Source: a virus. Taken from it: a stretch of DNA of 64,000 bases. The stretch lies in the IMG/VR virus record IMGVR_UViG_3300042090_002148. One strand, given 5' to 3'. The notes beneath the pieces were generated by a model that had not been told where the DNA came from, searched no databases, and saw nothing but the letters and a program-made list of their open reading frames with translations. Within the stretch, counting starts at the first letter, position 1. Each line of letters opens with the position of its first letter. Both the position numbers and the translations under genes were made by a program. Shown here in pieces: positions 17,840 through 46,660 of this stretch.

Positions 17840-17857
17840 CGGATGTACCTCAGCATC

Positions 17858-17887
17858 AGCGTACCGCGCGGCAGGAAAGCGGTGCAA
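17858..17887 (-). promoter_or_regulatory. Sigma70-like promoter TTGCAC-18-TACGCT for the RNAP gene
   Basis: -35 at 17887-17882, -10 at 17863-17858, followed by SD GAGGT and TTG 17839. Confidence 0.55.
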
Positions 17888-17919
17888 GCAACGTGTGGAT
17901 GCGGGGACAAGGATCTCGC

Positions 17920-18057
17920 ATGAAACAGACACCTAAACAGCCGCCGCCTACGCAAGGAGCTCGCTTCGCGGATCTCATCGCGGAGATGTTCGAGCCCAGA
18001 AAGAACAACGAACAGAAGACAGAAGAAGACGAGAAACGAGATAAGAAAACTGCGTGA
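17920..18057 (+). CDS. Possible small ORF, 45 aa (MKQTPKQPPP...EKRDKKTA)
   Basis: Translated by hand; below the track cutoff; purine-rich; may be non-coding. Confidence 0.25.
   Translation: MKQTPKQPPPTQGARFADLIAEMFEPRKNNEQKTEEDEKRDKKTA
18038..18053 (+). promoter_or_regulatory. GATAAG-box motif copy 1 (GAGATAAGAAAACTGC)
   Basis: 15/16 identical to the copy at 27880; sits at the head of a plus-strand unit. Confidence 0.6.
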
Positions 18058-18245
18058 ACACGCTGTGGAAGTACTTCATCGCGGGCCTTCTGAATGGACT
18101 CATGATCTGGATGCGCGAACGACTCAAGGAGGATGATGCTGCTCAACGTCTACGAAACGCGTCCGGAGGTGATCCCCGGAACGCGCCGACTGGAGGCGGA
18201 CTTCGGGATCCAAGGCCAGCGCCTCCGGGACCTGCACAACGCTGA
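18054..18245 (+). CDS. Possible small membrane-associated protein, 63 aa
   Basis: GTG directly follows the GATAAG box; hydrophobic LWKYFIAGLLNGLMIW; overlaps the next gene by 113 nt, so doubtful. Confidence 0.3.
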   Translation: MNTLWKYFIAGLLNGLMIWMRERLKEDDAAQRLRNASGGDPRNAPTGGGLRDPRPAPPGPAQR

Positions 18246-18723
18246 ACGGTTCTGGGAGGTGGGCGAGTCCTACCTCCCTTTCTACGGCCGCGCCCTCGGC
18301 GGCATACGCGTCAAGCTTACGGACCAGAAGGGCTTCATCACGTTCTGCAACCAGCGTGACTTCGAGGTGCTTCTGGGGATGGCGCGCCCTGGCGAATGGT
18401 GTCGCTGGGCGCACGAGGAGTACGTCGCACCCGGCCACGAGAAGTGGGTGGGCTTCTGCTGCGACGAAGCGGATGTCGAGGACGTGTTGTTCGGAGCCGA
18501 GCTGACGCTCCGACAGTACAGCCAGTACAACGGCTGGCTCATTCCTCCGATGGACGTGGAGTTCCGCATCCACGTCGAGGCCGGGTACGACGTCGAAGAA
18601 ACGCACGTACTCATCCTGGACCACGACCCGGAGACGGGGCTGGGTCCCGACACACAACTCGAGACGCTTCATCGCCGATGGGCGCGCTCAGAAAGGAGGC
18701 GTATCCAATGGAACCGGGTCTGA
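18133..18723 (+). CDS. Hypothetical protein, 196 aa
   Basis: AAGGAGG SD; globular composition. Confidence 0.65.
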   Translation: MMLLNVYETRPEVIPGTRRLEADFGIQGQRLRDLHNAERFWEVGESYLPFYGRALGGIRVKLTDQKGFITFCNQRDFEVLLGMARPGEWCRWAHEEYVAPGHEKWVGFCCDEADVEDVLFGAELTLRQYSQYNGWLIPPMDVEFRIHVEAGYDVEETHVLILDHDPETGLGPDTQLETLHRRWARSERRRIQWNRV

Positions 18724-19301
18724 CTCTTCCCCCTGCACCCCGGCGCAACTCGGGCAACAACTGCGCCGACCCTGACTGTGACGCCACGCTGTTCTACGGC
18801 GACGAGGTCGTCCGCATCCAGGTTGTCTTCGCTCAACGCGGAGACGGCGAGATTCTCCAGTACCCAGTTCTCGACGAGGAAGATCCGGCCCGGGACTTCT
18901 TGTTCGAGCCGTACTACTTCTGCATGGACTGCTGGAGCAAGACGTACGAGTTCGCGAAGAGCGAGCTCGCAGATCAGCTGCCTGTGTCCGACGTGCACAG
19001 CGTCTTCGAGTGCTCCTTCTGTGCGAGCGGTATCCGCGAGGTGACGGAGTACGCGGGCGTCGCCGAGATCGGAGAGTTCGAGCTCTCCAAGCGCGCGCCG
19101 GACGGACTGAAGGGGCCGATCTTCGTGGTCACCGCAAAGCCGATGCTCCTCTGCATCAGCTGCCTCCAACTCATCAACGAGGGCTACATCGAGCTCTGGT
19201 CGAACCTTTCACAGAACAACGAGTGCATCGACTGCTGCACCGCGCGTTGCTGGCGCGCTCCCTGTTCCTGTACCTGCCACACGGAAGAGACCCCCGAATG
19301 A
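18708..19301 (+). CDS. Cys-rich putative multi-zinc-finger protein, ~197 aa
   Basis: AAGGAGG SD before ATG 18708; CADPDC, CMDC, CSFC, CISC, CIDCC..CSCTC. Confidence 0.7.
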   Translation: MEPGLTLPPAPRRNSGNNCADPDCDATLFYGDEVVRIQVVFAQRGDGEILQYPVLDEEDPARDFLFEPYYFCMDCWSKTYEFAKSELADQLPVSDVHSVFECSFCASGIREVTEYAGVAEIGEFELSKRAPDGLKGPIFVVTAKPMLLCISCLQLINEGYIELWSNLSQNNECIDCCTARCWRAPCSCTCHTEETPE

Positions 19302-20524
19302 ACCTCAAGCTCATCATGTACATCTGCCTCCTCACTCCCGCGAAGCCCGTCGGCAAGGAGTGGCGCTGGGGCGTTCCTTACCTCCTGATGGGGGCTCCTT
19401 CGACCGCGAAGACCAGCAGCATTATCCAGGTCTGCGAACGCATGCAGGCGCCCAACGAGACGCTGTACCTGAGCACCCACATGCCGGAAGACCTCTCCGG
19501 CATCCCGGTGGTGATGAACGGGAAGGGGCAGCGCGTGAACTTCATGGCCGAGGTCGACGCACTTGCAGCACAGGGCTGCGGAGTCTTGGTGCTGGACGAG
19601 CTCACCACCGCGCGAGAGACCACGCAGAACGCCGCGATGGGGCTCGTCCTCGAGCGCGTGTTGGCTGGAACGAAGCTGCCCAACGGCCTACGCATCGCCG
19701 CCGCCGCGAACCCGCCCGAGCAGGCTGCTGCGGCTCGCGACCTGTCCCTCCCGGCTGCGAACCGCTTCCTGCACTTCGACGTGACGGAGGAGAACCGGCA
19801 GGGCTTCGATGAGACCCTCGAGCGGAGCTGCGCGTTGGCGCGCGGCGAGGAACCGCCGCCCTACACCGAGGAAAACGAGCTCGGCACGCTCAAGGACGGC
19901 GAGAAGATGGTCATGCAGCGCTGGGGTGTGGCGTTGCCGCGTACCTGGCGCCTCGTGAAGCGCTTCCTCGACAGCGCACCCGACCGCCTGACCGTCATCC
20001 CGCCCGTCGGGAACCCTGCGCGTGGCCGCGCCTGGGCCTCCAAGCGCAGCTGGGAGATGGGGACCATGGCGATGGCCGCTGCTGAGGCGCTCGCGCATCC
20101 CGAGTGCAACGCAGACCTTCTGACCGCCGCAGTCGGGGAAGACATCGCAGGCGAGTACATCGAGTTCGTCACCAAGCTGAACCTGCCCCACCCGACGGAC
20201 GTCATCAGCGGCAAGTGGACCCCGGACAAGACGCGCCTCGACACCGCTGCAACCGCGTTCGAGTCCGCGACGCTGTTCATCCTCGGCACCACCGACAAGG
20301 CGCTGCAGGCGCAGTACATCACGGACTACTGGGGCGTTCTCCACAAGGCCGCGGTCAAGCACAACTTTCTCGATGTCGTGCGAGGCAGCATCGAGTCCAT
20401 GGTGCAGCGCGGCTTCGCCAACCAGAGCATCAACCCGGAGTTCCACAAGGCGGCCAACCCCCTGCTCACCGCCTTGGGCGAGAAGTTCCACGAGCACCTG
20501 AACTTCCCGACAGCCGCTCCATGA
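19298..20524 (+). CDS. MoxR-type AAA+ ATPase, ~408 aa
   Basis: Walker A GAPSTAKT, Walker B VLVLDELT, sensor AAANP, arginine finger ANRFLH; ATGA overlap with the upstream stop. Confidence 0.85.
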   Translation: MNLKLIMYICLLTPAKPVGKEWRWGVPYLLMGAPSTAKTSSIIQVCERMQAPNETLYLSTHMPEDLSGIPVVMNGKGQRVNFMAEVDALAAQGCGVLVLDELTTARETTQNAAMGLVLERVLAGTKLPNGLRIAAAANPPEQAAAARDLSLPAANRFLHFDVTEENRQGFDETLERSCALARGEEPPPYTEENELGTLKDGEKMVMQRWGVALPRTWRLVKRFLDSAPDRLTVIPPVGNPARGRAWASKRSWEMGTMAMAAAEALAHPECNADLLTAAVGEDIAGEYIEFVTKLNLPHPTDVISGKWTPDKTRLDTAATAFESATLFILGTTDKALQAQYITDYWGVLHKAAVKHNFLDVVRGSIESMVQRGFANQSINPEFHKAANPLLTALGEKFHEHLNFPTAAP

Positions 20525-21807
20525 CAGACATCAACGAAGCCGAGGCGAAGATCTCTCTCGCGCGTACCATCGTTCGCTCGAAGGGTCCCTACTACTCGAA
20601 GACGATGGCCAGCCTGGTGTTCATGCCCCTCGAGGGCATCAAGACCATGTGCGTGACCACGAACCTCATCCTCGGCTACGACCCGGAGTGGGCGCTCATG
20701 GCGCCCGCGACGGTACTCGCCGCGGACGTTGTTCACGAGATCAACCACTTCATCCGGCGGCATCTTTACCGCATCCCCGGCGGAGACCCGCACCTGAAGA
20801 ACATCGCCGGCGACCTGTCCATCAACCCCGACCTCCTCATCGGAGGTTGGGACTTGGCGGACAAGACCTCGCCACGACCTGCCATCCTGCCGAAGGACTT
20901 CAAGTTCCCCGACGGGCTCTCACAGGAGGAGTACTACGCGCTCCTGCTGAAGGAACAACAGAAGAAGAACCCGAAGCTGCAGGAGATGCTCGATGCGCTG
21001 CGCGGTGGCCAGGGCGGCGTAGGCAGCGGTGCCTGCGGCGGCATCGCCCAGGGTGCGGGGCTCTCCGCTGCTGAGAAGGCACTCGAAGCCATCCCCGGAG
21101 TCGGTCGCTCGAAGGCCGAGATCAAGAACGTCGAGGTCATCGCAGCGAAGCAGATCAAGGACTACGTCGCCCAGAAGGGACGGGGTTCCGTCCCTGAGAA
21201 GCTCATTCGCGATGCAGAGCTCTCCAAGGAGATCTCAAGGATCCGCTGGCAGGACATCCTGTCTCGCGTCGTCCGCACCGCCACGGGGCAGATCACGCTG
21301 GGCGGCGAGATCGAGCCCTCGTACATACGACTCTCACGGCGCATGCAGCCGGAGATGGGCATCATCCGTCCGAGCTACATCACGCAGATGCCCGAGATCG
21401 CCATCGTGCGCGACACCTCGGGCTCGATGGGACAGAAGCAGCTGCAGGACTGCGTGCGCGAGTCCTACGCCATCGTGAAGAGCTTGGGCATCGACGAGGT
21501 CTGGTTCACGGACGCAGATGCTGCCGTGGCAATGCCCTGGCAGCGCGTGAGGAAAGAGTTCTTCGAGAAGCTGACAACTTCTCGAGGGGGAGGCGGAACA
21601 GACTTCGCTCCTGCTATCAAAGACGCACTGAAGCTCAAGCCGAAGCCCGACCTCCTCATCTACTGCACCGACGGCGACGGCTACGCAGGCGACGCCCCAC
21701 GAGGCATGGGCGTCGTGTTCGCTGTCGTCCCGTCCCACTACAACAAGGCCCCCTGCGAGTGGGCCACCACCGTCTTCATCGAAGACCCGGAGAAGAGCAC
21801 GTCGTAG
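20521..21807 (+). CDS. DUF2201-type putative metallopeptidase + vWA domain protein, ~428 aa
   Basis: HEINH (HExxH); MIDAS DTSGS; GGGTDF; YCTDGDG; ATGA-coupled to the MoxR gene. Confidence 0.85.
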   Translation: MTDINEAEAKISLARTIVRSKGPYYSKTMASLVFMPLEGIKTMCVTTNLILGYDPEWALMAPATVLAADVVHEINHFIRRHLYRIPGGDPHLKNIAGDLSINPDLLIGGWDLADKTSPRPAILPKDFKFPDGLSQEEYYALLLKEQQKKNPKLQEMLDALRGGQGGVGSGACGGIAQGAGLSAAEKALEAIPGVGRSKAEIKNVEVIAAKQIKDYVAQKGRGSVPEKLIRDAELSKEISRIRWQDILSRVVRTATGQITLGGEIEPSYIRLSRRMQPEMGIIRPSYITQMPEIAIVRDTSGSMGQKQLQDCVRESYAIVKSLGIDEVWFTDADAAVAMPWQRVRKEFFEKLTTSRGGGGTDFAPAIKDALKLKPKPDLLIYCTDGDGYAGDAPRGMGVVFAVVPSHYNKAPCEWATTVFIEDPEKSTS

Positions 21808-21808
21808 T

Positions 21809-21833
21809 GAAGGAGGGCCTCGTGCCCTTCTTC
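21809..21833. terminator. Hairpin between convergent genes, possible bidirectional terminator
   Basis: GAAGGAGGGC-ctcgt-GCCCTTCTTC, a 10-bp stem with one G-U pair, fills the whole intergenic gap. Confidence 0.55.
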
Positions 21834-23879
21834 TTAGGTACCGCCTGCTCTGCGTGGGGGACGCTGCTGTGGCATCGGGCGCGTGTCGACGCCGGCCACC
21901 TGTGACCCGGTGTTCCCCGAGCTCTCTCCACCTTCGCCCCCCATCTGGGCCAGGTACTGACGCACCAGGTCCGCGAGCTCGGGGCTCTGGAAGCCGAGGT
22001 TGGTGATGGCCTGCGCCTGCTGCTGCTTCGGCAGGGTCGCGATGGTGCGCGCCTGCATCAGCGCCAAGGAGGGCAGGTCGATGTTCTGCTTGGCCTGGCC
22101 GCCGCCAGCGCCCTGCATCTTCTGCCCGCCGGAGAGCTGGCTGCCGATCTGCTGGAGGAAGTCCGGAGGAGACGCTCCTCCGTTCGCAGGCTGCTGTTGC
22201 TGCGGAGCCTGCTCTCCGAGCTGCGGGGCCTGTCCCTGCTCGGGCGGTGGAGGTGCCATGCCCGCAGCGCCCTCGAGGCCACCAGGCTCTCCGGGTGCCT
22301 GTGGGGCCCCCATCGCCGTCTGAGTCTCCTGCTGCGCGCGAGCCTGGTACTTCACCATCACGAGCTGGGACTCGCCCTGGATGGTCGCCATCGCAAGCTG
22401 CTGCTTCTTCGTGGCCTCGAGACGTGTGTCGGTCTCGCGGATCATGATCTGGTTCTCGTCCTCCTGGGACATGTCGCTGTCTGCGAGGAGGGTCGTGTCG
22501 CTGATCTTGCCGGCCGCGTTGAGCTGGAAGTTGAACGCCTTGCGCTGCAGGTCGTCCGCCATCTTGAACGGCTTGAAGCGGATGTTCGCGAGCGGCCACC
22601 CGAGGAACGAGGAGACCTGCCGCATGATGAAGCGGGCGAGGTCGCGCTGACGCTGGAGGTAGCCGATGAACATGTTCTCGAGCATGCGCATCGACACGTT
22701 CGTGCCGGCGTAACTCATGCCGCCCTTGATGAACTCGAGGGGGACACCCATGCCGTTGAGGATCTGCTCCGACCAGGTCACGATCTCCTGCGTGAGAAGA
22801 AGCGCACGACCGTCACCGCCGATGGTCTGGTTGCCGATGGGCAGAGGAAGGATGGGGATGTAGTTGTTGTCCGTCCTCCAGCGCGCAATCTCCTGGGCAA
22901 TCTGGTCGCGCCAGTCGATGAGGTTGATGGTGGTGTACGGGTCCGAGCTCCCCGAACCGGCCTGCGGGAAGATGACGCGCAGCGGGACGATGTGCTCGAC
23001 GAGGATGGCCTCCTGCGCCTTCTTCATGATCTGCAGGTAGAAGGTGTCCTTCAGGACCGGCAGAAGAAGGGGAACACCCACGCCGCGGTCCTGCCCTGCC
23101 AGGGTCGGACGACGCATGTGGAAGAAGTTGTCCTTCGAGAAGATGACCCCCTTCTGCTCGCGCATCGCCTGGATGAAGACCTGCGGGATGCCGTCGACGA
23201 CGTCCTTGCGGCCGATGACGATGTCGTTCCGGATGATGGCGGGGATGTCGTAGAAGTACGTGTAGTCCCCGGTCATGTCGTTGTAGCGAACCTCGACATC
23301 CTCCGGGTTCCAGCGGATCGTCTTGATGCCGCTCGCGTTCTTGTAATAGACGTCCTTCGGCGTGGCATCACCGACGCGACCACAGCGCGGGCAGGTGAGC
23401 CGGAAGTTGAAGTTCGTGAAGATCCAGTTCGCCCGGATCTTCGACGCCTCGTCGCGGAAGTTGCACGCGTTGCAGAAGAGGAACTTCTTGAACGGGAACC
23501 CGAGCGAGACGTAGCCGTTGCCGTACGCATGGAAGTCGAGACCCGACTCCACCTGGAACGAACGGTAGCGGAGATGATCCTGGAAGTACTCCGTCCAGCG
23601 CTTCTTCACCTCCGGGTCTTCGTGGTCGATGATGATGTCGGTGACGGGGTACTCGCTCAGCTTGAACACCGTCGCATTGATGAGCGGGTTCGTGAGGAAG
23701 TAGTAGCGGCACCACTTGAAGAGCTGCTTGACCGTGACCGGCAAGTACGTGTGCGCGATGTCGAAGAACGGCGAGGGGTAGTTGACCCCTTGGATGTTGG
23801 AGCCGTTGATGCGCCCGCGTGTTGTGGCGAAGCGGAGCCCGCTTGCCGGGCCTGTCGCCATTCCTCCCAGAAAGCTCAT
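21834..23879 (-). CDS. Portal protein, 681 aa
   Basis: YPSPFFD..CRYYFLTNPLINATVFKLSEYPVT, DFHAYGNGYV, HMRRP..GVPLLLPVL, MGVPLEFIKGG are portal-like blocks; low-complexity C-tail. Confidence 0.75.
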   Translation of the reverse strand: MSFLGGMATGPASGLRFATTRGRINGSNIQGVNYPSPFFDIAHTYLPVTVKQLFKWCRYYFLTNPLINATVFKLSEYPVTDIIIDHEDPEVKKRWTEYFQDHLRYRSFQVESGLDFHAYGNGYVSLGFPFKKFLFCNACNFRDEASKIRANWIFTNFNFRLTCPRCGRVGDATPKDVYYKNASGIKTIRWNPEDVEVRYNDMTGDYTYFYDIPAIIRNDIVIGRKDVVDGIPQVFIQAMREQKGVIFSKDNFFHMRRPTLAGQDRGVGVPLLLPVLKDTFYLQIMKKAQEAILVEHIVPLRVIFPQAGSGSSDPYTTINLIDWRDQIAQEIARWRTDNNYIPILPLPIGNQTIGGDGRALLLTQEIVTWSEQILNGMGVPLEFIKGGMSYAGTNVSMRMLENMFIGYLQRQRDLARFIMRQVSSFLGWPLANIRFKPFKMADDLQRKAFNFQLNAAGKISDTTLLADSDMSQEDENQIMIRETDTRLEATKKQQLAMATIQGESQLVMVKYQARAQQETQTAMGAPQAPGEPGGLEGAAGMAPPPPEQGQAPQLGEQAPQQQQPANGGASPPDFLQQIGSQLSGGQKMQGAGGGQAKQNIDLPSLALMQARTIATLPKQQQAQAITNLGFQSPELADLVRQYLAQMGGEGGESSGNTGSQVAGVDTRPMPQQRPPRRAGGT

Positions 23880-24811
23880 ACGGGTGACTCCGGCGCCTGT
23901 CCGGCAGCAGCGGGACTCATGACGCGTTCAGTGGCGGTCTGCTGTGCCTCGGTTGGCTCCATCGTAGGAGTCGGGGCGTTGTGGAGTCGACGCCCCCGAA
24001 GACGATCTACTCCACGACCTGCCCAGGCACCGACCTGAGAAGACCCCGCACCGAGCGCGGCCTGCCCACCCATCGGCAGCATGCCACCGGCGATGCCGCC
24101 CACCGCACCTCCAACCGCACGACCCACGGACTCACCTCGGCCCTGTCCTTCTTCGGTCGGAGCAAGAGCACCTGCCGCGAGGGGGAGCCCGACGGCTGCT
24201 GCAGTCAGAAGTGGTTGGTTACGCAACTGCTCTTCCGCGCTCGTGCGCAGCGTATTGCCGACGCCGTTGTTCTTCATCGACTTGAGGTAGCCGGGGATGC
24301 TGGTGAGTCCCATGTTCTGCGCCTTCTCGGAAGCGTTTAGCGCTTTCTCCAGCCGTGGGACACTCCTGCTCCCCTCGGCCTTTGCTGTCGCGAGCGCTTG
24401 ACGAGCATCATGTGCTCCGCCGCGCACTCCCTCGATCTCTGCAGGGGAAAGCATTCCGGTGAAGCCATGAACCTGTCGTTGACCGAACCGTGACGCCGCG
24501 CCCATAGCGCCCGAAGCTTGCGTAAGGTGGCTGAGATCTTTCTTGACCAGGCCGCCAGCTGCTCCGCCAGCGAGACCACCAACCATCCCGCCCATCGTCG
24601 CGCCTTGAACAGCACCCCCGAGAGCTCCTGAGACACCACTCTGTCCGTTCTCCTCTGCGTGCTGGTAGCCGTGGATGCCGCCAAGGACTGCTCCACCGCC
24701 GGCGCCCAGCAGAGCACCACGCCCGCCGAGCGCACCGATGTTCTTCAACGCGAAACCGGCCTCCTTGCGGAGCTCGTCGCGGAACGCGAGCAGCATGGCC
24801 TCATCGAGCAT
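23876..24811 (-). CDS. Gly/Ala-rich putative internal virion protein, 311 aa
   Basis: N-terminal AFRDELRKEA; GGAVLGG-type glycine-zipper helices. Confidence 0.65.
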   Translation of the reverse strand: MLDEAMLLAFRDELRKEAGFALKNIGALGGRGALLGAGGGAVLGGIHGYQHAEENGQSGVSGALGGAVQGATMGGMVGGLAGGAAGGLVKKDLSHLTQASGAMGAASRFGQRQVHGFTGMLSPAEIEGVRGGAHDARQALATAKAEGSRSVPRLEKALNASEKAQNMGLTSIPGYLKSMKNNGVGNTLRTSAEEQLRNQPLLTAAAVGLPLAAGALAPTEEGQGRGESVGRAVGGAVGGIAGGMLPMGGQAALGAGSSQVGAWAGRGVDRLRGRRLHNAPTPTMEPTEAQQTATERVMSPAAAGQAPESPV

Positions 24812-25595
24812 GGAACAACCCCAGCTGGTTCATGAGTCGTTCGCGGTTCTCGTTGAGCTGCTGCTGCACCACAAGGAGACGATCCAGCTGCACAGCCACG
24901 GGTGTTGTAGCAGGAAGCGGCTTGCCTGCGCGCAGTACCTCGTCACAACGAGCCTGCACAGCACCGAGGTCCAGTCCCTCGGGGGCGTCAGGTGTCACGA
25001 AGTCAGCGGGTGGCAGCGTGCGGTAGATCCCATCGTGCTCGTAGATGGTCTTGACGTACGCCTTGAGCTCCTCCGACCAAGCCGGCACGCCCTCGGTGCG
25101 AACGTGTCCGGCCGTGGCGCAGGCGATGAGCACCTGACCTACCGTCGGCACCTGCATCACCACGAAGTCCGGGAACTCGCCGTTGAACGGCATGCAGCAT
25201 GCGAGGAAGACTCCCCAGCGTTCCCAGAAGGCGTCAGAGAGAAGGAGCGCACGCACCGCCTGGATCTTCGACAGGTTCAACGCGCTCAACCCGACGCCGA
25301 GGAACTCCTCCGCGATGCGGGGAGCAAACGTCTCGGCTTCCCACTCGAGCCAGTCGTCGCCGAAGGCGCCTCGAAGAAGAGCCTGGAGCACTACGGGGTG
25401 TGCCTCGGGGTGGCCCCAGATGTTCTGCTTCGTCACCGCGGCGAGAGGCAACGGGATGGTGGTCGTGGTCACCGTAGGGACGGGTGGCGTCGACTCGAGG
25501 TGCTCAGTGACGGCGTCCTCCAGAGGAAGATGAGGAGCGCCGACGTTCTTGAGCGTCTCGAGGAAGGTCTCCTCGGAGATGGGCAGCGGGGCCAT
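24801..25595 (-). CDS. Hypothetical head-block protein, 264 aa
   Basis: Trp-rich conserved-looking core HPEAHPVVL..WLEWEAET..KIQAVR..FWERW; SD GAGAGGGA. Confidence 0.7.
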   Translation of the reverse strand: MAPLPISEETFLETLKNVGAPHLPLEDAVTEHLESTPPVPTVTTTTIPLPLAAVTKQNIWGHPEAHPVVLQALLRGAFGDDWLEWEAETFAPRIAEEFLGVGLSALNLSKIQAVRALLLSDAFWERWGVFLACCMPFNGEFPDFVVMQVPTVGQVLIACATAGHVRTEGVPAWSEELKAYVKTIYEHDGIYRTLPPADFVTPDAPEGLDLGAVQARCDEVLRAGKPLPATTPVAVQLDRLLVVQQQLNENRERLMNQLGLFHAR

Positions 25596-25606
25596 CGCGT
25601 CCCTCT

Positions 25607-27298
25607 CTAGTACGCCGGCTCTGCGCCCGGTGCGGTGCCCTGCGCCATGTGGATGACCATCTTCTTCTGGTCGCGGGGCAGGCTCTCGTAGACGCCGATG
25701 GGGTCCTTGCGGAACTCCTCCTGGAAGTCTTCACCGAAGGTGTCACGCACCGTGTGCGTCCCGACGTGCGCGAGACGCTTCAGGTCCGCGTAGGTGATCA
25801 TGTCGTTGCCGATGATGTCGGACCACGACGACTTGCTCGCGATCTTCTCGTTGCCGAAGATGGAGAAGTAGGGGTCAGGGATCGTCTTGTCGTAGGAGCG
25901 GTTCAGCCCGGTGTCCTTGTCGAACTCCGAGAGCAGTGCGCACGCCTCGACGGGATGAAGGGCCAGCGACGCCAGCTTCGAGCCACCCTGCGTGAGGATG
26001 ACGTCCTCCACGGCATCGAGGACACGAAGCACGTCAGGGTACGCCTGGAGCTCTGCCCGTCGCGCGTCGAAGGCGATCTTGATCTCGGTCTCCGGAGCGA
26101 GGCCCTCTGCGCCGTACTTGTGCGCGATGTCCGGGATGTCGATGGCCATCGCCGACGCCTGCTTCACGAGGTTCACGGCGTACTCACGGCGCTCTTCGGG
26201 AGCGAAGAACTTGTAGTACTCCCCGAAGTAGGAGCCTGCTGCCTTCACCTGCGCGTAGCTGTCGAGCGGGTAACGGGACAAGCTTGGCAGCGCGTACTTG
26301 CTGGCCTTCTTCTCCGTCACGTAGGTCGGAGGCTTCGCGTTGGTGACGTCCACTGTCGGCTGCAGGTGCTTCGCCTGCGGCAACGACTTCGGTCCCTCGC
26401 CAGCGATGGCGCTGTTCTCCTGCAGCATCTCCTCGTGGTCGCTCTTCGAGGCCGAGACCAGATGACCGACGCGCGCGGTCTTGTTGATGGTTGTCTTCGA
26501 CGGGGTCGGCGAGAGCTTCCCAGGCTCCTCCATGGGAGCAGTCGTTGTGCCGTTGACCTCTGCCCCTTTGAACGTGCTCATCAACTGTCCGCCTGCCTGG
26601 CCGGCCGCAGCCATGTTGTTCTTGATGGCACCTCCTGCACCTACAGCCGTGCGCGCCAAACCCACGGCCTTACCGATGCCGCCCGGCAACATCTCAGCTG
26701 CGCTACCCAAGAGCTCACCACCAAGACCCGCGAACTTTGCGCCAGCTCCCATGTGCTGCTGCACCGCTTTCTGCGCCGAGGCGACGTTCACAGGCCCACC
26801 GGTGGCACCTGCGTAACCCGCCACCCGATCACCCTGCATGATGCGCTTATACCTTCCTCCATACTGCGCCTTCATGCGGGCCTCTACGGCCATCTGCTCA
26901 GGACTGCCCAGTACGTTGGTAGCATCCGATGAACCCATGCCCGCCTTCTTCACAAGTTCCTCTGGGACCTCGAGGTCGTACCAGCCAGAGGCGACGATGA
27001 GGTTCTCCGCGGCTGTCTTCTGCGCCTCGACGGGAAGCTTGTGCGCGTTCTTGAGGAAGTACGCGACGGAGAGCTCGGTGTTGCCTGGGTCGACGCAGGC
27101 GTACTTCCTGAGCTTCTCTCCGTTGTTCACCATGACGAGTGCGAAGACGTCGTCCGGCAGCCGGTTGCGCGTGCCTTTCAGGTCTGACGCCACCTTCACG
27201 CCTTCCGGCAGCGCGTCGAGCGTGGGGTAGAGAGAACGCAGAGTCTCTCCGTTGAAGTCGTCGTAGACATCGAGAATGAGGCCGCTGATCGAGTCCAT
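25607..27298 (-). CDS. Putative virion/head protein, 563 aa
   Basis: Nine KxA-type motifs; YALP..YPLD..VKAA..YF block; heads an operon leading to the portal. Confidence 0.75.
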   Translation of the reverse strand: MDSISGLILDVYDDFNGETLRSLYPTLDALPEGVKVASDLKGTRNRLPDDVFALVMVNNGEKLRKYACVDPGNTELSVAYFLKNAHKLPVEAQKTAAENLIVASGWYDLEVPEELVKKAGMGSSDATNVLGSPEQMAVEARMKAQYGGRYKRIMQGDRVAGYAGATGGPVNVASAQKAVQQHMGAGAKFAGLGGELLGSAAEMLPGGIGKAVGLARTAVGAGGAIKNNMAAAGQAGGQLMSTFKGAEVNGTTTAPMEEPGKLSPTPSKTTINKTARVGHLVSASKSDHEEMLQENSAIAGEGPKSLPQAKHLQPTVDVTNAKPPTYVTEKKASKYALPSLSRYPLDSYAQVKAAGSYFGEYYKFFAPEERREYAVNLVKQASAMAIDIPDIAHKYGAEGLAPETEIKIAFDARRAELQAYPDVLRVLDAVEDVILTQGGSKLASLALHPVEACALLSEFDKDTGLNRSYDKTIPDPYFSIFGNEKIASKSSWSDIIGNDMITYADLKRLAHVGTHTVRDTFGEDFQEEFRKDPIGVYESLPRDQKKMVIHMAQGTAPGAEPAY

Positions 27299-27305
27299 GC
27301 TCCGT

Positions 27306-27311
27306 ATCCTA
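27306..27311 (-). promoter_or_regulatory. -10-like hexamer TAGGAT, 7 nt upstream of ATG 27298
   Basis: Read directly; no -35 box seen. Confidence 0.45.
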
Positions 27312-27316
27312 CCCGG

Positions 27317-27820
27317 TCACGCGGGCGATTGGTACTGCAGCAGGTACATCCGGGCCTTCTCGGTCCTTACCGGATCCTTCTCCAAGAAGCCGACAGTCAG
27401 GTTGCATCCATGGCACAGCAGCGCCCGCAGCTTGTTCGTTCGGTGGTTGTGATCTACGCACAGCGGCTTCCCGCCTGGCTGTGGCTTGCCACAGATGGCG
27501 CAGACCCCTCCTTGGGCGCGTACACGCTCCTCGTACTCTTCCGCGGTGAGCCCGTACTCTCGAAGGAAACGTTCCCTGTTGTACTGCTTGCGCTCCGCCT
27601 TGTGTGCATCTCTCCAGCGTTGGGCGGTGGCACGCCCCTTCTCGCTGATCGCGTATCTACGCTGAACCGGCTGCGTCGTACGCGGCTTGCCGCGGTAGTA
27701 GTGGGCGTTGTAGTGCTCGCGGCAGAAGGACATGCTGTACGCCTCCCTTTTACAGCCACTCGGCTCTGCGCACTGTTTGCCCTTGTTCTTCTGGTACTTC
27801 TTTCGGCGCTCCGTGTACAC
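27317..27820 (-). CDS. Endonuclease VII-type HNH endonuclease
   Basis: YGLTAEEY..QGGVCAICG..VDHNH..RALLCHGCN..GFLEKDP. Confidence 0.9.
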   Translation of the reverse strand: MYTERRKKYQKNKGKQCAEPSGCKREAYSMSFCREHYNAHYYRGKPRTTQPVQRRYAISEKGRATAQRWRDAHKAERKQYNRERFLREYGLTAEEYEERVRAQGGVCAICGKPQPGGKPLCVDHNHRTNKLRALLCHGCNLTVGFLEKDPVRTEKARMYLLQYQSPA

Positions 27821-27879
27821 AATTCGCTTAGTACTCTGGAACTAAGTGAAAAGCAAACGGCAAGTTAGGCGCGAGCAAG

Positions 27880-27895
27880 GAGATAAGAAACCTGC
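27880..27895 (+). promoter_or_regulatory. GATAAG-box motif copy 2 (GAGATAAGAAACCTGC)
   Basis: Head of the replication block, in a divergent intergenic region. Confidence 0.6.
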
Positions 27896-27919
27896 CACGT
27901 GACTATGCCAGGAGGCCGC

Positions 27920-28585
27920 ATGAACGTATCTGTCGCACCGACACCGAGCGTCTCACAAGGAGCGCCGAGTTGCTTCGGAAAGGAGTGGGACAATCGAGCA
28001 CCCGAGTGTACTGGTGGACCCGACCCGAGCTTCAAGGACGAGGAGGGCAAGCACGTCCGCATCCGTTGTGGATGGTTCACGACGTGCGGGTCCGTGACTC
28101 AATCCGCGCGCCAGCTCATCGCACCGCAGACGTTGATCCGTCCACAAGCCCCCGCGGCGCCGTCGTTCGTGCCGACGCCCCCGGGCATGCCGCCGCGTCC
28201 GATGTGGACGCCCCCCGTTTCTCACCCACCCGTCGCGCCGCAGTCTGTTCAGACTGACTGGCAGCGCATCGAGCAGCAACGACAAGAGGGCCTGCGTCGT
28301 CTACAGGCCACCCCACCCCCGCAGTACCAGCCCATACCGTCAGGGCAGCAGATGCAGCCCCAGCAGTTCGTGCAGATGCAGGGGCCCGTCCACTACCCGG
28401 CGCAGACCTGGCAGGTCGGCTACGGAATGCCCGCCTATCTCACCCACGAAGAAGTACGGCAGACCGGAGAGTCCTGGTGGTCCGTGTTCATACGTGAGAT
28501 CTTTCGCGGCGCGTTGAAGGCGCTGTTTCACTCAGGAGCGCGCTACATAGACGTCAACCCGTTCAAGGGTCCACCCAGGAGCTAG
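27920..28585 (+). CDS. Hypothetical protein with N-terminal Cys cluster and Pro/Gln-rich middle
   Basis: GGAGG SD before ATG 27920; CFG..C..C..C N-terminus; C-terminal amphipathic helix. Confidence 0.65.
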   Translation: MNVSVAPTPSVSQGAPSCFGKEWDNRAPECTGGPDPSFKDEEGKHVRIRCGWFTTCGSVTQSARQLIAPQTLIRPQAPAAPSFVPTPPGMPPRPMWTPPVSHPPVAPQSVQTDWQRIEQQRQEGLRRLQATPPPQYQPIPSGQQMQPQQFVQMQGPVHYPAQTWQVGYGMPAYLTHEEVRQTGESWWSVFIREIFRGALKALFHSGARYIDVNPFKGPPRS

Positions 28586-29089
28586 ATGAGAAGACTGAAC
28601 CTGACGGGGCGGCGCTTTGGCCGCCTCGTCGCAGTAGCACGCGAAGGAAGCGACGGCAGCGGTGGCGCTACCTGGCGTTGCCGTTGCGACTGCGGTCAGG
28701 AGAAAGTCATCAGCGCACACTCGTTGAACAAGGGACGTACCGTCTCGTGCGGTTGCTGGAACCGCACGAGACCACGAGCAACGCACGGTGAAGCATCGCC
28801 CAGCACCCGCACAACTGAGTACCGTATCTGGTCTGCGATGAAGGATCGCTGCGGTAACAGCAAGAACCCACAGTACAAAGACTACGGCGGTAGGGGCATC
28901 ACAGTTGACCCACGCTGGCTAACGTACGAAAACTTTCTCGAGGACATGGGACGTCGGCCTCCTGGTCTCACCATCGAACGAAACAACAACGACGGACCGT
29001 ACGCACCCTGGAACTGTCGCTGGGCTACACGCAAAGAGCAACAAGCCAACACAAGGAAGCGACATGGACATCATCGTACGGCGCCCTAA
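28586..29089 (+). CDS. HNH homing endonuclease
   Basis: LTGRRFGRL..WRCRCDCG..SCGC..YRIWSAMKDRC..YGGRGI..TIERNNNDGPYAPWNCRWAT. Confidence 0.9.
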   Translation: MRRLNLTGRRFGRLVAVAREGSDGSGGATWRCRCDCGQEKVISAHSLNKGRTVSCGCWNRTRPRATHGEASPSTRTTEYRIWSAMKDRCGNSKNPQYKDYGGRGITVDPRWLTYENFLEDMGRRPPGLTIERNNNDGPYAPWNCRWATRKEQQANTRKRHGHHRTAP

Positions 29090-30845
29090 TGTTGGTTATC
29101 TTGACAGTGCGCTTTGGGTACCCAAGGCCGCGATCAATGCCGAGGGGGTGAAGCGCGTCCTCACCTTCGAGTTCTTTGAGCGCGACAAGATGAACGTGCT
29201 CACGCTCTACAAAGAGACGGACCACCACCTCATCGTGCCGCGAGAGTTCTGGCCACCCCAGACCTTCCAGTTTCCGGTCATCGACTGCCGCCCCCTCCGC
29301 TACACGCGGACGGGGGTGGTCAGCCGCATCAAGCTCGACCACGAGTTCGAGGACGGCACGCTGCGTCCCACCGGAAAGACAACGCAGCACGACGCGATGG
29401 CAGCGTTGCTGAGCACACGCGGCGGAGTACTGCAGCTGGCTTGCGGACTCGGCAAGACGGTCATCGCGCTCGACTTTCTAGCTAGGCGCGGCTTCCCCGC
29501 CCTCATCATCCTCGACACCACGCAGCTGATGCACCAGTGGACGAAGGAGATCAACGAGCACCTCATCGTTCCCGGAGGAGTAGGGCTCATCCAGGGGCAG
29601 ACGTTCGACTGGAAGAAGAGCGTCGTCATCGCCACGTACCACACGCTTGCAGAACGAGCGGCCTCGATGCCGGAGGAAGTACGCCAGTGGTTCGGAACAA
29701 TCATCTGGGATGAAGCGCATCACCTTGGGGCACCGAAGTTCTCGCGCACGGCCGATCTCTTCTACGGGTTGCGCCTTCTACTCACCGCGACCCCAGACAG
29801 GGACGACGGCACGCAGGTCATCTACAACTTCCACGCTGGCCCCGTCTTCTACAAGGACCTGAAGCAGGAGCTCACACCGGACATCTTCTTTAGGTGGACG
29901 GGCGTCGGGCTCGACATGACGGACAAGACCGTCGCTGCCGCCGTCAACGACTGCAACGGGGAGATGCACATCGGGAAAGTCGCTGGGCACCTGGGTCGTC
30001 AGCCTGCGCGCATTCAGTTCGTCCTCGACGAGGTGAAGCAAGCCATCGACGCCGGCCGCAAGGTCATCGTTCTCTCGAAGAGCGTCGACGCGCTCGTGAA
30101 CATGTTCGCCGCGTGGAACATGCGGCAGGCCCTCATCACCGACATCCCGTTCCCGACCGCGGCCGAGGTCGGAGAAACGGTGCCGCCGCGAGAGCTCGAC
30201 AAGGCCTCCGCAAGCAAGCTGATGGCTCACATCATGACGGCGAAGAAGGAGCTCGAGAACCCACTCCTACCTCCCCAGAAGCGCATCGAGCTCCAGATCA
30301 AGAAGGAGCACTTCGACCAGGCGTGGCAGGCCCACCTCGTCTTCAAGAAGTGCGAAGCGCTCTACAACGCCAAGCGCGCGGCCTACCTGAAGGAGCTCAT
30401 CACCCTGCCGAGCAACGCCGGGCTGATGATCTACAAGGTCAAGCCGGCGATGCGCGACAAGATGCTGCGAGAGCGGCAGGTCACCTTCGCCGTCATGAAG
30501 TACGGACGTGAAGGGCTCGACGACCGCAACCTCGACACCATCATCATCAACGAGCCGATCTCCAGCCGCAACTCGCTCCAGCAGATAATGGGACGCGTTT
30601 TGCGGAAGAAGAAGGGTAAGCAGACGTCCGTCGTCGTCTTCCTCGAGGACAACATCGGACCCTTCATCGGCATGTGCCAGAAGCTCCGCAACCACCTCCG
30701 TACCTGGGCGCCTGAAGAAGGCGGTCCCTTCGACTACGAGAACATCGGACAGCCCGTCTCCATGCGCACGAAGAAAAAAGCCGTGCTTCAAGCCACCGCC
30801 TACGCACAGTCCACCTCCATCCGACCCGCCACAAGGACCACATGA
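29064..30845 (+). CDS. Superfamily 2 DEAH helicase (UvsW-like)
   Basis: LACGLGKT, IWDEAHH, LTATP, QIMGRVLR. Confidence 0.9.
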   Translation: MDIIVRRPNVGYLDSALWVPKAAINAEGVKRVLTFEFFERDKMNVLTLYKETDHHLIVPREFWPPQTFQFPVIDCRPLRYTRTGVVSRIKLDHEFEDGTLRPTGKTTQHDAMAALLSTRGGVLQLACGLGKTVIALDFLARRGFPALIILDTTQLMHQWTKEINEHLIVPGGVGLIQGQTFDWKKSVVIATYHTLAERAASMPEEVRQWFGTIIWDEAHHLGAPKFSRTADLFYGLRLLLTATPDRDDGTQVIYNFHAGPVFYKDLKQELTPDIFFRWTGVGLDMTDKTVAAAVNDCNGEMHIGKVAGHLGRQPARIQFVLDEVKQAIDAGRKVIVLSKSVDALVNMFAAWNMRQALITDIPFPTAAEVGETVPPRELDKASASKLMAHIMTAKKELENPLLPPQKRIELQIKKEHFDQAWQAHLVFKKCEALYNAKRAAYLKELITLPSNAGLMIYKVKPAMRDKMLRERQVTFAVMKYGREGLDDRNLDTIIINEPISSRNSLQQIMGRVLRKKKGKQTSVVVFLEDNIGPFIGMCQKLRNHLRTWAPEEGGPFDYENIGQPVSMRTKKKAVLQATAYAQSTSIRPATRTT

Positions 30846-31348
30846 ACACGCCCAAGCTCAACGAACTGTTCCAGCCCGAGAAGCACGCCTGGGTCATGGC
30901 GTACCGCCACTCGGCGAAGTACTTCGGTCGCCTCATCGACATCGACGGCGCGAAGCCGCCCGAGGGAAAGGTCAGCGCCTTCGAGGTGCGCAAGGCGAAG
31001 AACGTCGCGCTCAGCCCCATCTTCCAGCTCATCACCGCGCAGCGTCAGGTGCCCCTTGATGCGCGCGGCAAGCCCATCGAGTTCGACGAGTCAGGACGCC
31101 CCACGAGCCGCCCGGTGAGCACCGGCATCACGACCGAGCCTTTCGTGCAGCTCGTCGAGTTCTGCGACTACATGACCCCGATGCACTTCGAGGGCGCGGA
31201 CATCCAGCGGTTCTTCAGCGAGATGACCGAAGAGGACGTGAAGGGCTACCGCGGGCTCCTCGAGGGCGTTGTGGCATCCGTGCAGGCCGCGTCTCCCATC
31301 GCGCTCGCGACGCCGGCGGAGACCAGCAAGGTCACCCGTGGACGTTGA
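30842..31348 (+). CDS. Hypothetical protein, 168 aa
   Basis: ATGA overlap with the helicase stop; globular composition. Confidence 0.6.
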   Translation: MNTPKLNELFQPEKHAWVMAYRHSAKYFGRLIDIDGAKPPEGKVSAFEVRKAKNVALSPIFQLITAQRQVPLDARGKPIEFDESGRPTSRPVSTGITTEPFVQLVEFCDYMTPMHFEGADIQRFFSEMTEEDVKGYRGLLEGVVASVQAASPIALATPAETSKVTRGR

Positions 31349-32195
31349 CGCACGCAAGCCACTCGGCATCCTGCAGAACGAGTGGAGCACCTGCCAACGC
31401 TGCCCGCTCGGGGAGCGACGCCTGAACGTGGGGGCACACTTCGTCCCCGGTGTGGGCTACCCGCGTTCCGTCATGCTCATCGGCGATGGACCGAACGAAG
31501 AGTCCGAGCAGATCGGCGCACCCTTCGTCGGCCGCTCAGGAGGAATCCTGCGCGCCATCCTCGCTCGCTTGGGGCTGAAGGAGTACTACCTCACCAACCT
31601 CGTTGCTTGCCGCTCCTGCGTGCCGCAGACCAACGCCTCTGGCGAACCGATGCAGCGGCGCGTGGGCGGGGTGATGACCCCCGTCTACAAGGACGAGACG
31701 CCCATCCCAGCGCACATCGCAGCGTGCCGCGCTCGTCTCAACGAGGAGATCTACCTCGTGGATCCGACGGTTATCGTAGGGCTGGGTCCGAAGGTCTGCG
31801 AGGCCCTCACGGGACGAGCCGCAAACCTGGCGCGTGACAACGGGGAGGCTCGTCCCATCTCCATCCCCGGTGCTTCACGCGTCGCCGAACTCACTGACAA
31901 GGGCGCCTGGCTCCGCAAGGTGAAGGGCCAGTGGATCCAACCGGTCGCGCGCAGCGAGGTGCGTTACCACTTCGTCCCCACCTACCATCCGCTCGACGTC
32001 GAGCGGGTGATGGACGACATGAGCCCGAACAGCACCTTCAACAAGTTCATCGTCGCACTCCGAACGGCAGTCCAGACGCATGACGCCTACCTCGAGGGAG
32101 CCTACGGCATGACGCCGGCCAACCGCGGACAGGCCACCGATCTCGACCTTCAACACGTAGCGCAGCAAGAGGCACAGACCCATGAAGAAGCGTGA
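31338..32195 (+). CDS. Family 4 uracil-DNA glycosylase-like protein (Fe-S), ~285 aa
   Basis: CQRC..GDGPN..PFVGRSG..LTNLVAC..C..YHP; start re-placed at GTG 31338. Confidence 0.85.
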   Translation: MDVDARKPLGILQNEWSTCQRCPLGERRLNVGAHFVPGVGYPRSVMLIGDGPNEESEQIGAPFVGRSGGILRAILARLGLKEYYLTNLVACRSCVPQTNASGEPMQRRVGGVMTPVYKDETPIPAHIAACRARLNEEIYLVDPTVIVGLGPKVCEALTGRAANLARDNGEARPISIPGASRVAELTDKGAWLRKVKGQWIQPVARSEVRYHFVPTYHPLDVERVMDDMSPNSTFNKFIVALRTAVQTHDAYLEGAYGMTPANRGQATDLDLQHVAQQEAQTHEEA

Positions 32196-32616
32196 AGCGA
32201 GACCCGTCACCGTAGACGAGGTCCCGGAGCTGATGGCGTACGAACTCGCGAAGCGGGATCTCGACAACTTCAAGAAGAAGCACGCAGCCGTCATCGAGGA
32301 GCTGGCATCCCTCGTCGAAGCTCACAACACAACCCTCGAGGCAGCAGACAAGGTGATGCGCGCGAACAACTACACCTGCGCGCCGTTCAACCTCCAGCAC
32401 TTCACCACGAAGTACAGCGCAGACGAGGCCTTCGTCCTGCTCGGCCGCGACGGCTTCCTCGCGGTCGGGGGCAAGATCGACAAGAAGGAGATCTACGACC
32501 TCGACAAGGATCGCTTCGAGGCAGCAGCCTCGCAGGGCAAGATCGCCGACGCCGTTGTAGAGAAGGTCCGCACCGAGACGCCGACCTACAAGAAGCCCAA
32601 GCCCCTGGCTGTCTGA
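32182..32616 (+). CDS. Hypothetical protein, 144 aa
   Basis: Coiled-coil-like N-half; embedded in the operon. Confidence 0.6.
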   Translation: MKKREARPVTVDEVPELMAYELAKRDLDNFKKKHAAVIEELASLVEAHNTTLEAADKVMRANNYTCAPFNLQHFTTKYSADEAFVLLGRDGFLAVGGKIDKKEIYDLDKDRFEAAASQGKIADAVVEKVRTETPTYKKPKPLAV

Positions 32617-32619
32617 GCG

Positions 32620-32916
32620 GTGAACTCCGCGCGGCTCACCATCGAGCGAAACGACGTCATCATCTACGAGAGGATCGAACCGATGGACAAGTTCCAGTCC
32701 CTGCGACAGACAACAGGACCCGAGGCACATGTCGGGATGAACATGGGCGTAGGCCAGGACTTCGGGAAGCTGAAGGTCGGTGCATCCGTCACCCTCAGCT
32801 GCGACCAGAACGAGGCGGCCATCAACGCGGCCGGCTACCAGGCGTTCACCAAGTGCATGGAGCTGGTCGAGCAGGGCATGAAGTACCTCGCGCAGAACCC
32901 GGAGGTGCCGACGTGA
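32620..32916 (+). CDS. Hypothetical protein, 98 aa
   Basis: Operon spacing of 3 nt; protein-like composition. Confidence 0.55.
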   Translation: MNSARLTIERNDVIIYERIEPMDKFQSLRQTTGPEAHVGMNMGVGQDFGKLKVGASVTLSCDQNEAAINAAGYQAFTKCMELVEQGMKYLAQNPEVPT

Positions 32917-33242
32917 TTCGCGGGCACATGAAGTGCGACGGAATCGCGCTGGGCGAAGCGAGTTTCAGCTTCATGAACTCGGGCGGCATCGTCCTCGAGG
33001 CGAAGGCCGCTTTCGTCAGCACGAAGACCGGCGACACGTACGGCTGGACGAAGAACACGGTCTGGTCTCCGCCCACCATCGAGAAGCTGAAGGAGCTCCG
33101 CACGTTGATGGAGATCGATCTCGGTCACCTTCACCTCGAGGAGGGCGGCGAGTCGCTCACGGGCGCCTCAGCGCCTACGGAGGGACGCGGGCTGGGCAGC
33201 ATGCCGAAGGGCGGGATCGGCGAAGAGGTTGGGTCCGTCTGA
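32913..33242 (+). CDS. Hypothetical protein, ~109 aa
   Basis: GTGA overlap with the upstream stop and a GGAGG SD. Confidence 0.55.
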   Translation: MIRGHMKCDGIALGEASFSFMNSGGIVLEAKAAFVSTKTGDTYGWTKNTVWSPPTIEKLKELRTLMEIDLGHLHLEEGGESLTGASAPTEGRGLGSMPKGGIGEEVGSV

Positions 33243-33369
33243 CCCCCTACCGCTAGTGGCGTGACCTGCCGTCCACGCAGCTAATAGAGAAAGCGCGGAG
33301 GCGATTGACGTGGGCCGCGCGGGCGGCCACGGTGATCGTCCCCCGCGTGTCCACTTTTGTTAGCCGTGG

Positions 33370-33385
33370 GGGATAAGAGGTCCGC
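33370..33385 (+). promoter_or_regulatory. GATAAG-box motif copy 3 (GGGATAAGAGGTCCGC)
   Basis: In the largest intergenic gap, 33 nt upstream of the helicase ATG. Confidence 0.5.
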
Positions 33386-33417
33386 CTACGTCATCGATCC
33401 TTGCTCTCCGAGGTGCA

Positions 33418-35882: not shown

Positions 35883-35894
35883 CCAGGAGCACAC

Positions 35895-46654: not shown

Positions 46655-46660
46655 TTTTTC

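Follow-up and report, generated by a model that had tools for sequence, protein, structure and literature searches.

Phage-encoded sigma factors such as gp55 of T4, which serves late promoters, and gp28 and gp34 of SPO1 redirect the core RNA polymerase (RNAP) of the host, in phages that carry no polymerase of their own; to our knowledge, the known phage sigmas act on the host core enzyme. Here we analyse a GATAAG-containing box in a 64,000-nucleotide (nt) stretch of viral DNA (IMG/VR record IMGVR_UViG_3300042090_002148; referred to at its full length as the window), which forms the right-hand third of a ~183 kb phage genome and encodes an RNAP with fused β and β′ subunits. The multisubunit polymerases of the PhiKZ/AR9 type consist of split polypeptides, have no sigma and use single short promoter elements (PMC7598289, PMC9209446, PMC7824862), and a survey of jumbo phages lists polymerase without sigma or sigma without polymerase (PMC7824862). 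Promoters of FliA (σ28) have the consensus TAAAGTTT-N11-GCCGATAA (PMC7286023).

Like the PhiKZ/AR9 group, the window lineage has a phage multisubunit polymerase, possibly virion-borne, and candidate phage-specific promoters; unlike that group, it has a β-β′ chain close to the cellular enzymes (Pfam Rpb2_6, 1e-58), a σ70-family factor and a bipartite promoter motif. As with the T4 and SPO1 sigmas, a phage sigma-family protein would define a promoter class for one temporal block of genes, but here the catalytic subunits are phage-encoded too and the genes marked by the class are non-structural, not late. The comparisons described below indicate that the box is probably one half, the −10-like one, of a bipartite phage promoter specific to the lineage, with a phage-encoded sigma as its most likely reader.

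A phased motif at gene heads in the window and its relatives

A preliminary description of the window had drawn attention to a 16-nt box at 18038-18053 (GAGATAAGAAAACTGC), 27880-27895 (GAGATAAGAAACCTGC) and 33370-33385 (GGGATAAGAGGTCCGC), with a weaker copy at 17903-17911 (GGGGACAAG). The quoted sequences proved exact and the three headline copies all lie on the plus strand; an exhaustive scan of both strands of the 64 kb returned exactly three GRGATAAG matches, all on the plus strand and none antisense. Three copies compare with 1.0 expected, and three or more occurred in 10 of 100 shuffles. The 15/16 match between the 16-mers at 18038 and 27880, which the description had singled out, holds letter for letter, but such matches are common and nothing special: 187 distinct pairs of loci in the window carry 16-mers that differ at no more than one position, and the figure for Markov shuffles is ~82 raw pairs. 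Because the 8-mer count lies within chance and 15/16 pairs are common, the window alone leaves the box undecided, and the reality of the motif rests on comparison with relatives.

The window is collinear with contig G1 (IMG/VR UViG_3300047498_000060) at 85-89% nucleotide identity, positions 1-60000 corresponding to G1 126229-182487. More distant relatives include G2 (UViG_3300042090_002370), a 164-kb, 88%-complete contig with 59% protein identity; L001, with 86% protein identity to the window on the RNAP N terminus; and L004, with 42% RNAP protein identity. Searching with the RNAP by tblastn recovered the cultured relatives Salmonella phage Arash (181 kb, 35% identity) and Vibrio phages D181, D148 and D69, and Arash is the closest cultured relative of the lineage (OQ632216.1; PMC10585845). 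A megablast search of window 17000-29000 against GenBank phages gave no match.

Across these relatives the motif reads (G)CAA(G), 15 nt, GG-N-A-[T/C]-AAG, 5 nt and YG, usually followed by GGAGG and ATG. Numbered from the predicted start, GCAAG occupies −34 to −30, a 17-bp spacer separates it from the hexamer N-A-[T/C]-A-A-G at −12 to −7, GG lies at −14/−13, and a purine-rich 5-nt discriminator leads to Y(−1) and G(+1), the Y-G pair sitting 7 nt past GATAAG. In aligned GRGATAAG sites of G1 and G2, two purines follow the box and ATG commonly lies 17-20 nt past it. The 16-mer of the preliminary description spans −14 to +2, with the conserved G taken as +1; the true unit is instead a bipartite motif of ~35 nt, and family-wide the recurring parts of those 16 nt are limited to the 8-mer and to Y-G at positions 14-15. 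Hexamer position 2 is an invariant A and position 6 an invariant G, not T, in the window, G1, G2, L004 and Arash, and the 17-bp spacing of the two conserved blocks is found at three of the window sites described below (A, C and D). By this comparison the geometry appears to be that of a σ70-family promoter; a scan of 17000-34000 for σ70-type promoters found none (0 against 1.6 expected).

Phasing and position are both non-random in the relatives. Of the 52 intergenic G[GA]NA[TC]AAG sites in G1 and G2, 24 have a CAA beginning exactly 19 nt ahead of the box and 4 have one beginning 18 nt ahead, with 0-2 sites at each other offset between −40 and −9, and Y-G falls at box +6/+7 in 42 of the 52. 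Intergenic DNA makes up ~9% of the G1 and G2 genomes, and no 7-mer of G2 is more strongly enriched between genes than GGGATAA (12 of 13 copies intergenic, p 3.5e-12). A weight matrix spanning −22 to +9 and built from GRGATAAG sites of G1 and G2 picks out 20 sites in G1 and 23 in G2 at 13 bits or higher, where shuffles yield 0-4. Most of these 43 sites (35) fall between genes; by crude gene calls, 7 more are in coding sequence of the same strand, and a single one is antisense. The G1 sites are restricted to 21-100 kb and 145-160 kb. At 12 bits or more the window holds four sites (0.5 expected), all on the plus strand and all at heads of plus-strand units. The box is always oriented with the downstream gene and is retained at orthologous gene heads while the flanks diverge; the start codon follows at anything from 8 to ~56 nt, whereas the CAA and Y-G distances are fixed.

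The core recurs in Arash, which contains 43 copies of GGNATAAG against 15 for a reversed-pattern control; 31 of them read GGTATAAG, and 36 share the strand that carries the non-structural genes and precede start codons. The Arash consensus, GGTATAAG-tAAnG-TGTA, has the same N5-TG phasing as the window lineage. Arash further resembles the lineage in its bacterial-type β and β′, its homologous sigma gp10 and its genome of ~181 kb. It differs in its box, GGTATAAG, which has T rather than G at hexamer position 1, in its weak −35 element, and in a record that gives β and β′ as two separate, non-adjacent genes (Gp206 and Gp216), which are fused in the window. At hexamer position 1, L004 likewise has T, and G2 is mixed.

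Four sites in the window, all on the plus strand, carry the motif. Site A has a −35-like GCAAG at 17884-17888, 17 bp before the hexamer GACAAG at 17906-17911, and both element and spacing are kept in L001 and G1. Its box, GGGACAAG (17904-17911, 18.4 bits), places the predicted start at G 17918, 2 nt before ATG 17920, and has orthologues at G1 145729, in L001 (GGAACAAG) and at G2 83386 (GGGATAAG). The downstream open reading frame (ORF), at 17920-18057 on the plus strand, encodes a conserved 45-residue peptide with a variable charged tail and has homologues in L001, L003 and G2 by translation; it contains site B. Box B, GAGATAAG (18038-18045, 16.8 bits), has a weak −35 and a predicted start at G 18052, 2 nt before GTG 18054. 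The copy that the preliminary description had called weaker is thus the better candidate promoter, having a proper −35 element and the higher matrix score. The description had also placed the 18038 copy at a divergent strand switch. It does lie 199 nt from the RNAP start codon TTG 17839, but in the R-D-K codons that end the 17920-18057 ORF and not in a spacer, and the head-of-unit promoter at this switch would be A.

The TGA of the 45-residue ORF overlaps the GTG of a small membrane-type ORF (18054-18245, plus strand), whose first ~27 residues, a hydrophobic helix, are conserved in four relatives. Because CGAGATAAG at B is unchanged in the window, G1 and L001 amid a diverged tail, B may be a genuine internal promoter. 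Its orthologues lie at G1 145863, L001 5209 and G2 83162 (GGAATAAG), the last being intergenic and 6 nt before the GTG of the orthologous small ORF, and in L004 GCAAC-N15-GGTATAAG-N5-TG stands ahead of the corresponding small ORFs.

Site C combines a −35-like GCAAG at 27860-27864 (identical in G1, GCCAA in G2), 17 bp from the hexamer at 27882-27887, with GAGATAAG-AAACC-TG-C at 27880-27895 (box 27880-27887); at 27.5 bits it is the best in the window. The predicted start at G 27894 is followed by AGGAGG at 27910-27915 and ATG 27920, and the orthologous boxes, at G1 154950 and G2 72155, precede the same gene (MNV...). Homology to G1 resumes 2 nt before the −35 block of C, upstream of which the window has an endonuclease VII gene of its own. 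Metatranscriptome runs X10 and X11 (wetland) gave only contigs of 150-380 nt at depths of 2-7 over 16500-36400, from which neither starts nor ends were readable; one wetland RNA contig, at 27732-27921, spans box C, and DNA carry-over is possible. Near-identical DNA to window 24500-34400 occurs in wetland, soil and moss metagenome runs from seven studies (shares 0.27-0.87).

At site D the −35 position (33350-33354) reads TCCAC, a variant that is common in Arash too, and the box, GGGATAAG-AGGTC-CG-C at 33370-33385 (box 33370-33377, 24.4 bits), has orthologues at G1 159986 and G2 67105 (GGAATAAG). The predicted start at G 33384 precedes GAGGT (33409-33413) and the ATG at 33418 of a DnaB helicase (DnaB_C, 3e-17). 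The preliminary description had read the following genes as helicase, primase and single-stranded-DNA-binding protein; the DnaB helicase (33418-34896) and DnaG-type primase (34893-35882) are confirmed, but the third frame (35895-37349) has no Pfam match.

Relaxing the pattern to G[GA]NA[TC]AAG gives 19 matches in the window, and the 15 outside sites A-D have no phased CAA, with one exception: GGTACAAG at 35416-35423 on the plus strand, within the primase gene, is preceded by GCAAG at the correct −35 spacing and has C-G at +6/+7, which may reflect an internal promoter or mere coincidence. The earlier statement that a box heads each plus-strand unit went too far: the plus-strand gene at 1557-2282 (HTH_17, excisionase-like) has none in its 48-nt upstream spacer.

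The polymerase and sigma factor of the lineage

The fused β-β′ RNAP (2169 residues; 11330-17839, minus strand) matches Rpb2_6 at 1e-58 and Rpb1_2 at 2e-28 and carries NADFDGD at residue 1416; its TTG start at 17839 was fixed by alignment to the ATG starts of relatives L002 and L004. The matrix scan of the window found no GATAAG-type box upstream of the RNAP gene. The β′ part keeps recognisable clamp helices (residues ~1222-1270), and no α-like (RNA_pol_L) gene was found in G1, G2 or Arash. We also noted that the start of β′ (residues ~1040-1095; window 14560-14720, minus strand; GGLFDERLTGGHGGRHWTHIELAEP) appears by eye to be cysteine-free; by eye, too, this segment falls where Escherichia coli β′ has its zinc-binding domain.

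A sigma gene was found through the Arash annotation, tblastn and a family profile; a search for PF04542 (Sigma70_r2) in G1 and G2 gave no match. Arash gp10 has a Sigma70_r3 match (9e-9) and, among NCBIfam models, scores best against FliA/WhiG (7e-12; 45 bits against a family cut-off of 326). Its 279-residue homologue in G1 lies at 61426-62265 (tblastn 5e-19) and scores 0.01-0.03 for SigBFG and FliA_WhiG. Metagenomes yielded 74 homologues, many on contigs of 120-200 kb, and a profile built from 24 family members aligns with SigA/HrdB at 1e-16 over regions 2-4 and with FliA at 5e-7 over nearly the full length. Profile comparison thus indicates that the lineage has a divergent σ70-family factor with region 4, closest to FliA/WhiG, and a sigma with region 4 fits a promoter that has a −35 element. 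A box also stands at the head of the sigma operon, at G1 63823 and, by synteny, at G2 163327, and in Arash that operon is preceded by the only plus-strand GGTATAAG of the genome (11588). Mass spectrometry of Arash virions detected β (Gp206, the most abundant by spectral count), β′ (Gp216) and a 'sigma factor RpoS' (Gp10), in a paper that contains no mention of promoters (PMC10585845).

A structural model of the complex places sigma residues 36-79 on the β′ clamp helices with a score of 0.73, compared with 0.00 for the best of three controls; the mark applied is one that 58 of 80 solved complexes and 2 of 110 mismatched pairs attain, runs agreed in at least 36% of contacts, and the partner had a predicted local distance difference test (pLDDT) value of at least 68. 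Since sigma on the clamp helices is the solved textbook interface of the cellular enzymes, the model speaks for likeness, not binding, and may reflect memory of solved structures.

Two side observations concern sigma-like genes elsewhere. In the chromosome of the myxobacterium Pendulispora rubella (CP089983.1, 9221145-9241924), a phage-sigma homologue (46% identity, Sigma70_r3) is encoded within a block of 62.8% GC whose genes mostly lack annotation. This could represent an integrated relative and give a clue to the host phylum; the 20.8 kb around the homologue has no clear box. In Arash, a 291-residue frame contains a second, weak Sigma70_r3 match (89987-90133, minus strand, E 0.004), and the phage may therefore encode two sigma-like proteins.

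Candidate readers of the motif

We favour as the best reading a promoter class for non-structural genes that would be σ28-like in geometry, not in sequence. Transcription would start at the boxes; a group-3-like sigma would read the −35 element through region 4 and the −10 element through region 2, and would work with the phage's own fused β-β′ polymerase. The −10 analogue proposed in the preliminary description is supported by the 17-bp-phased −35-like (G)CAA(G), the Y-G, the orientation and the conservation, on grounds of geometry and comparison. As for its reader, given there as the phage RNAP or some other specificity factor, the σ70-family protein of the lineage, encoded outside the window, now provides a concrete candidate.

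Several observations weigh against this reading. The GRGATAAG count inside the window alone is not significant, and the gene calls for G1 and G2 are crude, coming from a codon-bias script. The matrix evidence is partly circular, the matrix having been trained on GRGATAAG sites of G1 and G2; that training choice has no bearing on the GGGACAAG, GGAATAAG, GGCATAAG and GGTATAAG sites or on the CAA phasing. The sigma gene lies outside the window, and the sigma profile finds none in the 88%-complete G2 contig, where by synteny the gene would sit just past the contig end. Without α, a host core with a phage sigma is possible. In Vibrio phage D181, which encodes the RNAP and a sigma homologue, GGNATAAG is not enriched (20 against 24 for the control), so the wider group does not share the motif throughout. 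Finally, the predicted starts at A and B lie only 2 nt before a start codon, so these sites need leaderless translation or a different start; with a start at 17918, the AAGGA upstream of ATG 17920 falls outside the mRNA. The 2 nt before each of the two start codons are G-C, and the G2 box ahead of the membrane-type ORF places the predicted start on the G of GTG, which suggests leaderless messages for the peptides at 17920 and 18054.

The motif might instead be read by the host RNAP holoenzyme, through FliA/σ28 or an unusual housekeeping sigma, and serve early genes ahead of the synthesis of any phage polymerase. The σ70-family geometry (17-bp spacer, A at −11, Y−1/G+1) suits such an enzyme, and replication and accessory genes are of the kind expressed early. 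The resemblance to FliA promoters is also specific: the motif is bipartite, with an equal gap of 11 nt between the 8-mers in the family-wide phasing and a GATAA core, and AAGTT-like −35 elements occur at 27860 (GCAAGTTA), G1 81343 and G2 45611 (GCAAGTTT), site C (GCAAGTTA-N11-GGAGATAA) matching the FliA consensus at 11 of 16 positions with the same spacing. Yet the −10 element has GG(N) where σ28 has GCC and an extra invariant G after GATAA, CCGATAA is found at no window site, the consensus is nGG[G/A/T/C]A[T/C]AAG, and the −35 core is CAA, preceded by G or C, and not TAAA. The lineage sigma scores far below the FliA family cut-offs, and the boxes head replication and accessory genes rather than flagellar ones; the motif thus appears to work like a σ28-type promoter without being one. 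A −10 element with neither the CCGA of σ28 nor the T(−7) of σ70 speaks against a host holoenzyme in general, as does the existence of a phage sigma that is virion-associated in Arash. The recurrence of the core in Arash, which infects Salmonella, and in wetland phages of 59-64% GC points to a factor travelling with the phage, and we regard reading by the host holoenzyme as quite unlikely.

Should the phage sigma read the motif but recruit the host core, as T4 gp55 and SPO1 gp28 do, the β-β′ enzyme would use other signals. The sigma family does align with cellular sigmas over regions 2-4, α-like genes are missing from G1, G2 and Arash, and the box is absent from the RNAP's own block and from the structural genes, so a second promoter class must exist. 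But β, β′ and sigma occur together in Arash virion preparations, and the β′ clamp helices are recognisable and receive sigma in the complex model (subject to the possible structure memory); on balance, recruitment of the host core seems unlikely. We consider it very improbable that the box serves as operator to a DNA-binding protein of the phage (for example, the HTH protein at 1557-2282), acts in 5′ leaders as an RNA-level signal for processing or translation, or is a chance repeat, even though statistics confined to the window are weak and many copies lie 17-20 nt before ATG, directly against the ribosome-binding site. The operator, which the preliminary description had offered as the alternative, finds no support in a box without dyad symmetry and with strict orientation along the downstream gene: just 1 of the 43 matrix sites in G1 and G2 is antisense, and the four in the window share one strand. 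A leader signal would not need a phased element 15 nt upstream, nor would it fit a variable start-codon distance beside fixed CAA and Y-G distances, and at 33370 the box directly follows a terminator-like hairpin. The enrichment seen in G2, G1 and Arash rules out chance.

Transcription units and the biology of the lineage

With a phage sigma promoter at each box, the window would contain three plus-strand units: from 17904 (plus 18038) to a terminator at 21810-21838, from 27880 to a hairpin at 33280-33365, and from 33370 to ~46666. Boxed genes comprise two small ORFs, a MoxR-type ATPase, a VWA/DUF2201 protein, a SNF2/ResIII helicase, a UDG-family protein, DnaB, the DnaG-type primase, a family A DNA polymerase and a RecA-like protein. 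In the matrix scan, the minus-strand blocks encoding RNAP, terminase (2279-4138), large virion-type proteins and pyrophosphatase have no box. CAGTAC-like words were considered as a minus-strand promoter class (4 against 1.1 expected in the window) and rejected, as they are not enriched in G1 or G2.

Terminator-like hairpins on the plus strand mark the ends of the units. The first (21810-21838) has a 9-bp stem and a CTTAGG tail (−19.9 kcal/mol, z −2.1). The second (33280-33365), long and ending in TTTTGTTAGC, reaches −65.9 kcal/mol (z −2.95; 0 of 200 shuffles as stable) and abuts and overlaps the −35 region of promoter D. The third (46602-46666) is weak and degraded, with TTTTTCTTAGCC after it; at this place the hairpin of G1 is clean and carries T8-CTTAGC, and the window has a 465-bp insertion relative to G1 nearby. 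In the window, and genome-wide in G1 and G2, such hairpins carry a T/C-rich run closing in TTAG(C/G); GCTAAGA is intergenic at 13 of 17 copies in G1 and TAGCTA at 26 of 40 in G2, always beside a GC-rich hairpin. A generic terminator scan stayed at background level and missed the TTAG-tailed hairpins, which may be a polymerase-specific signal for termination or re-initiation. After some of those in G2, a ribosome-binding site and ATG follow 8-25 nt later.

Two genes of the endonuclease VII family (Pfam 2e-17, 4e-22) and an ORF with a weak HNH-like match lie at 27317-27820, 9405-9995 and 45989-46654, all on the minus strand. Segments 27339-27858 and 46190-46654 have no counterpart in G1, and from the alignment both look like insertions of the homing-endonuclease type at transcription-unit boundaries.

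Within the literature searched, we found no publication on this promoter class, full-text matches to the 8-mer being primer lists only, and none on a multisubunit polymerase of this lineage with a sigma or a promoter consensus. It is possible, if doubtful, that virions package the single-chain β-β′ enzyme with its own FliA-like sigma and no α, and that, upon infection, non-structural genes are transcribed from GG-N-AYAAG promoters without host polymerase; if true, this would be the first sigma-dependent virion RNAP, with the sigma gene under its own promoter.

The lineage is a little-studied group of ~180 kb phages with their own bacterial-type RNAP and sigma, and it combines near-bacterial catalytic subunits, a σ70-family factor and a candidate promoter class. 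That class predicts transcription units, with boxes at their heads and hairpin-TTAG tails at their ends, separates non-structural from structural genes, and offers a testable change in −10 recognition, G for T at −7. As Arash, a cultured Salmonella phage, shares the box core, a bench test would be possible beyond metagenomes.

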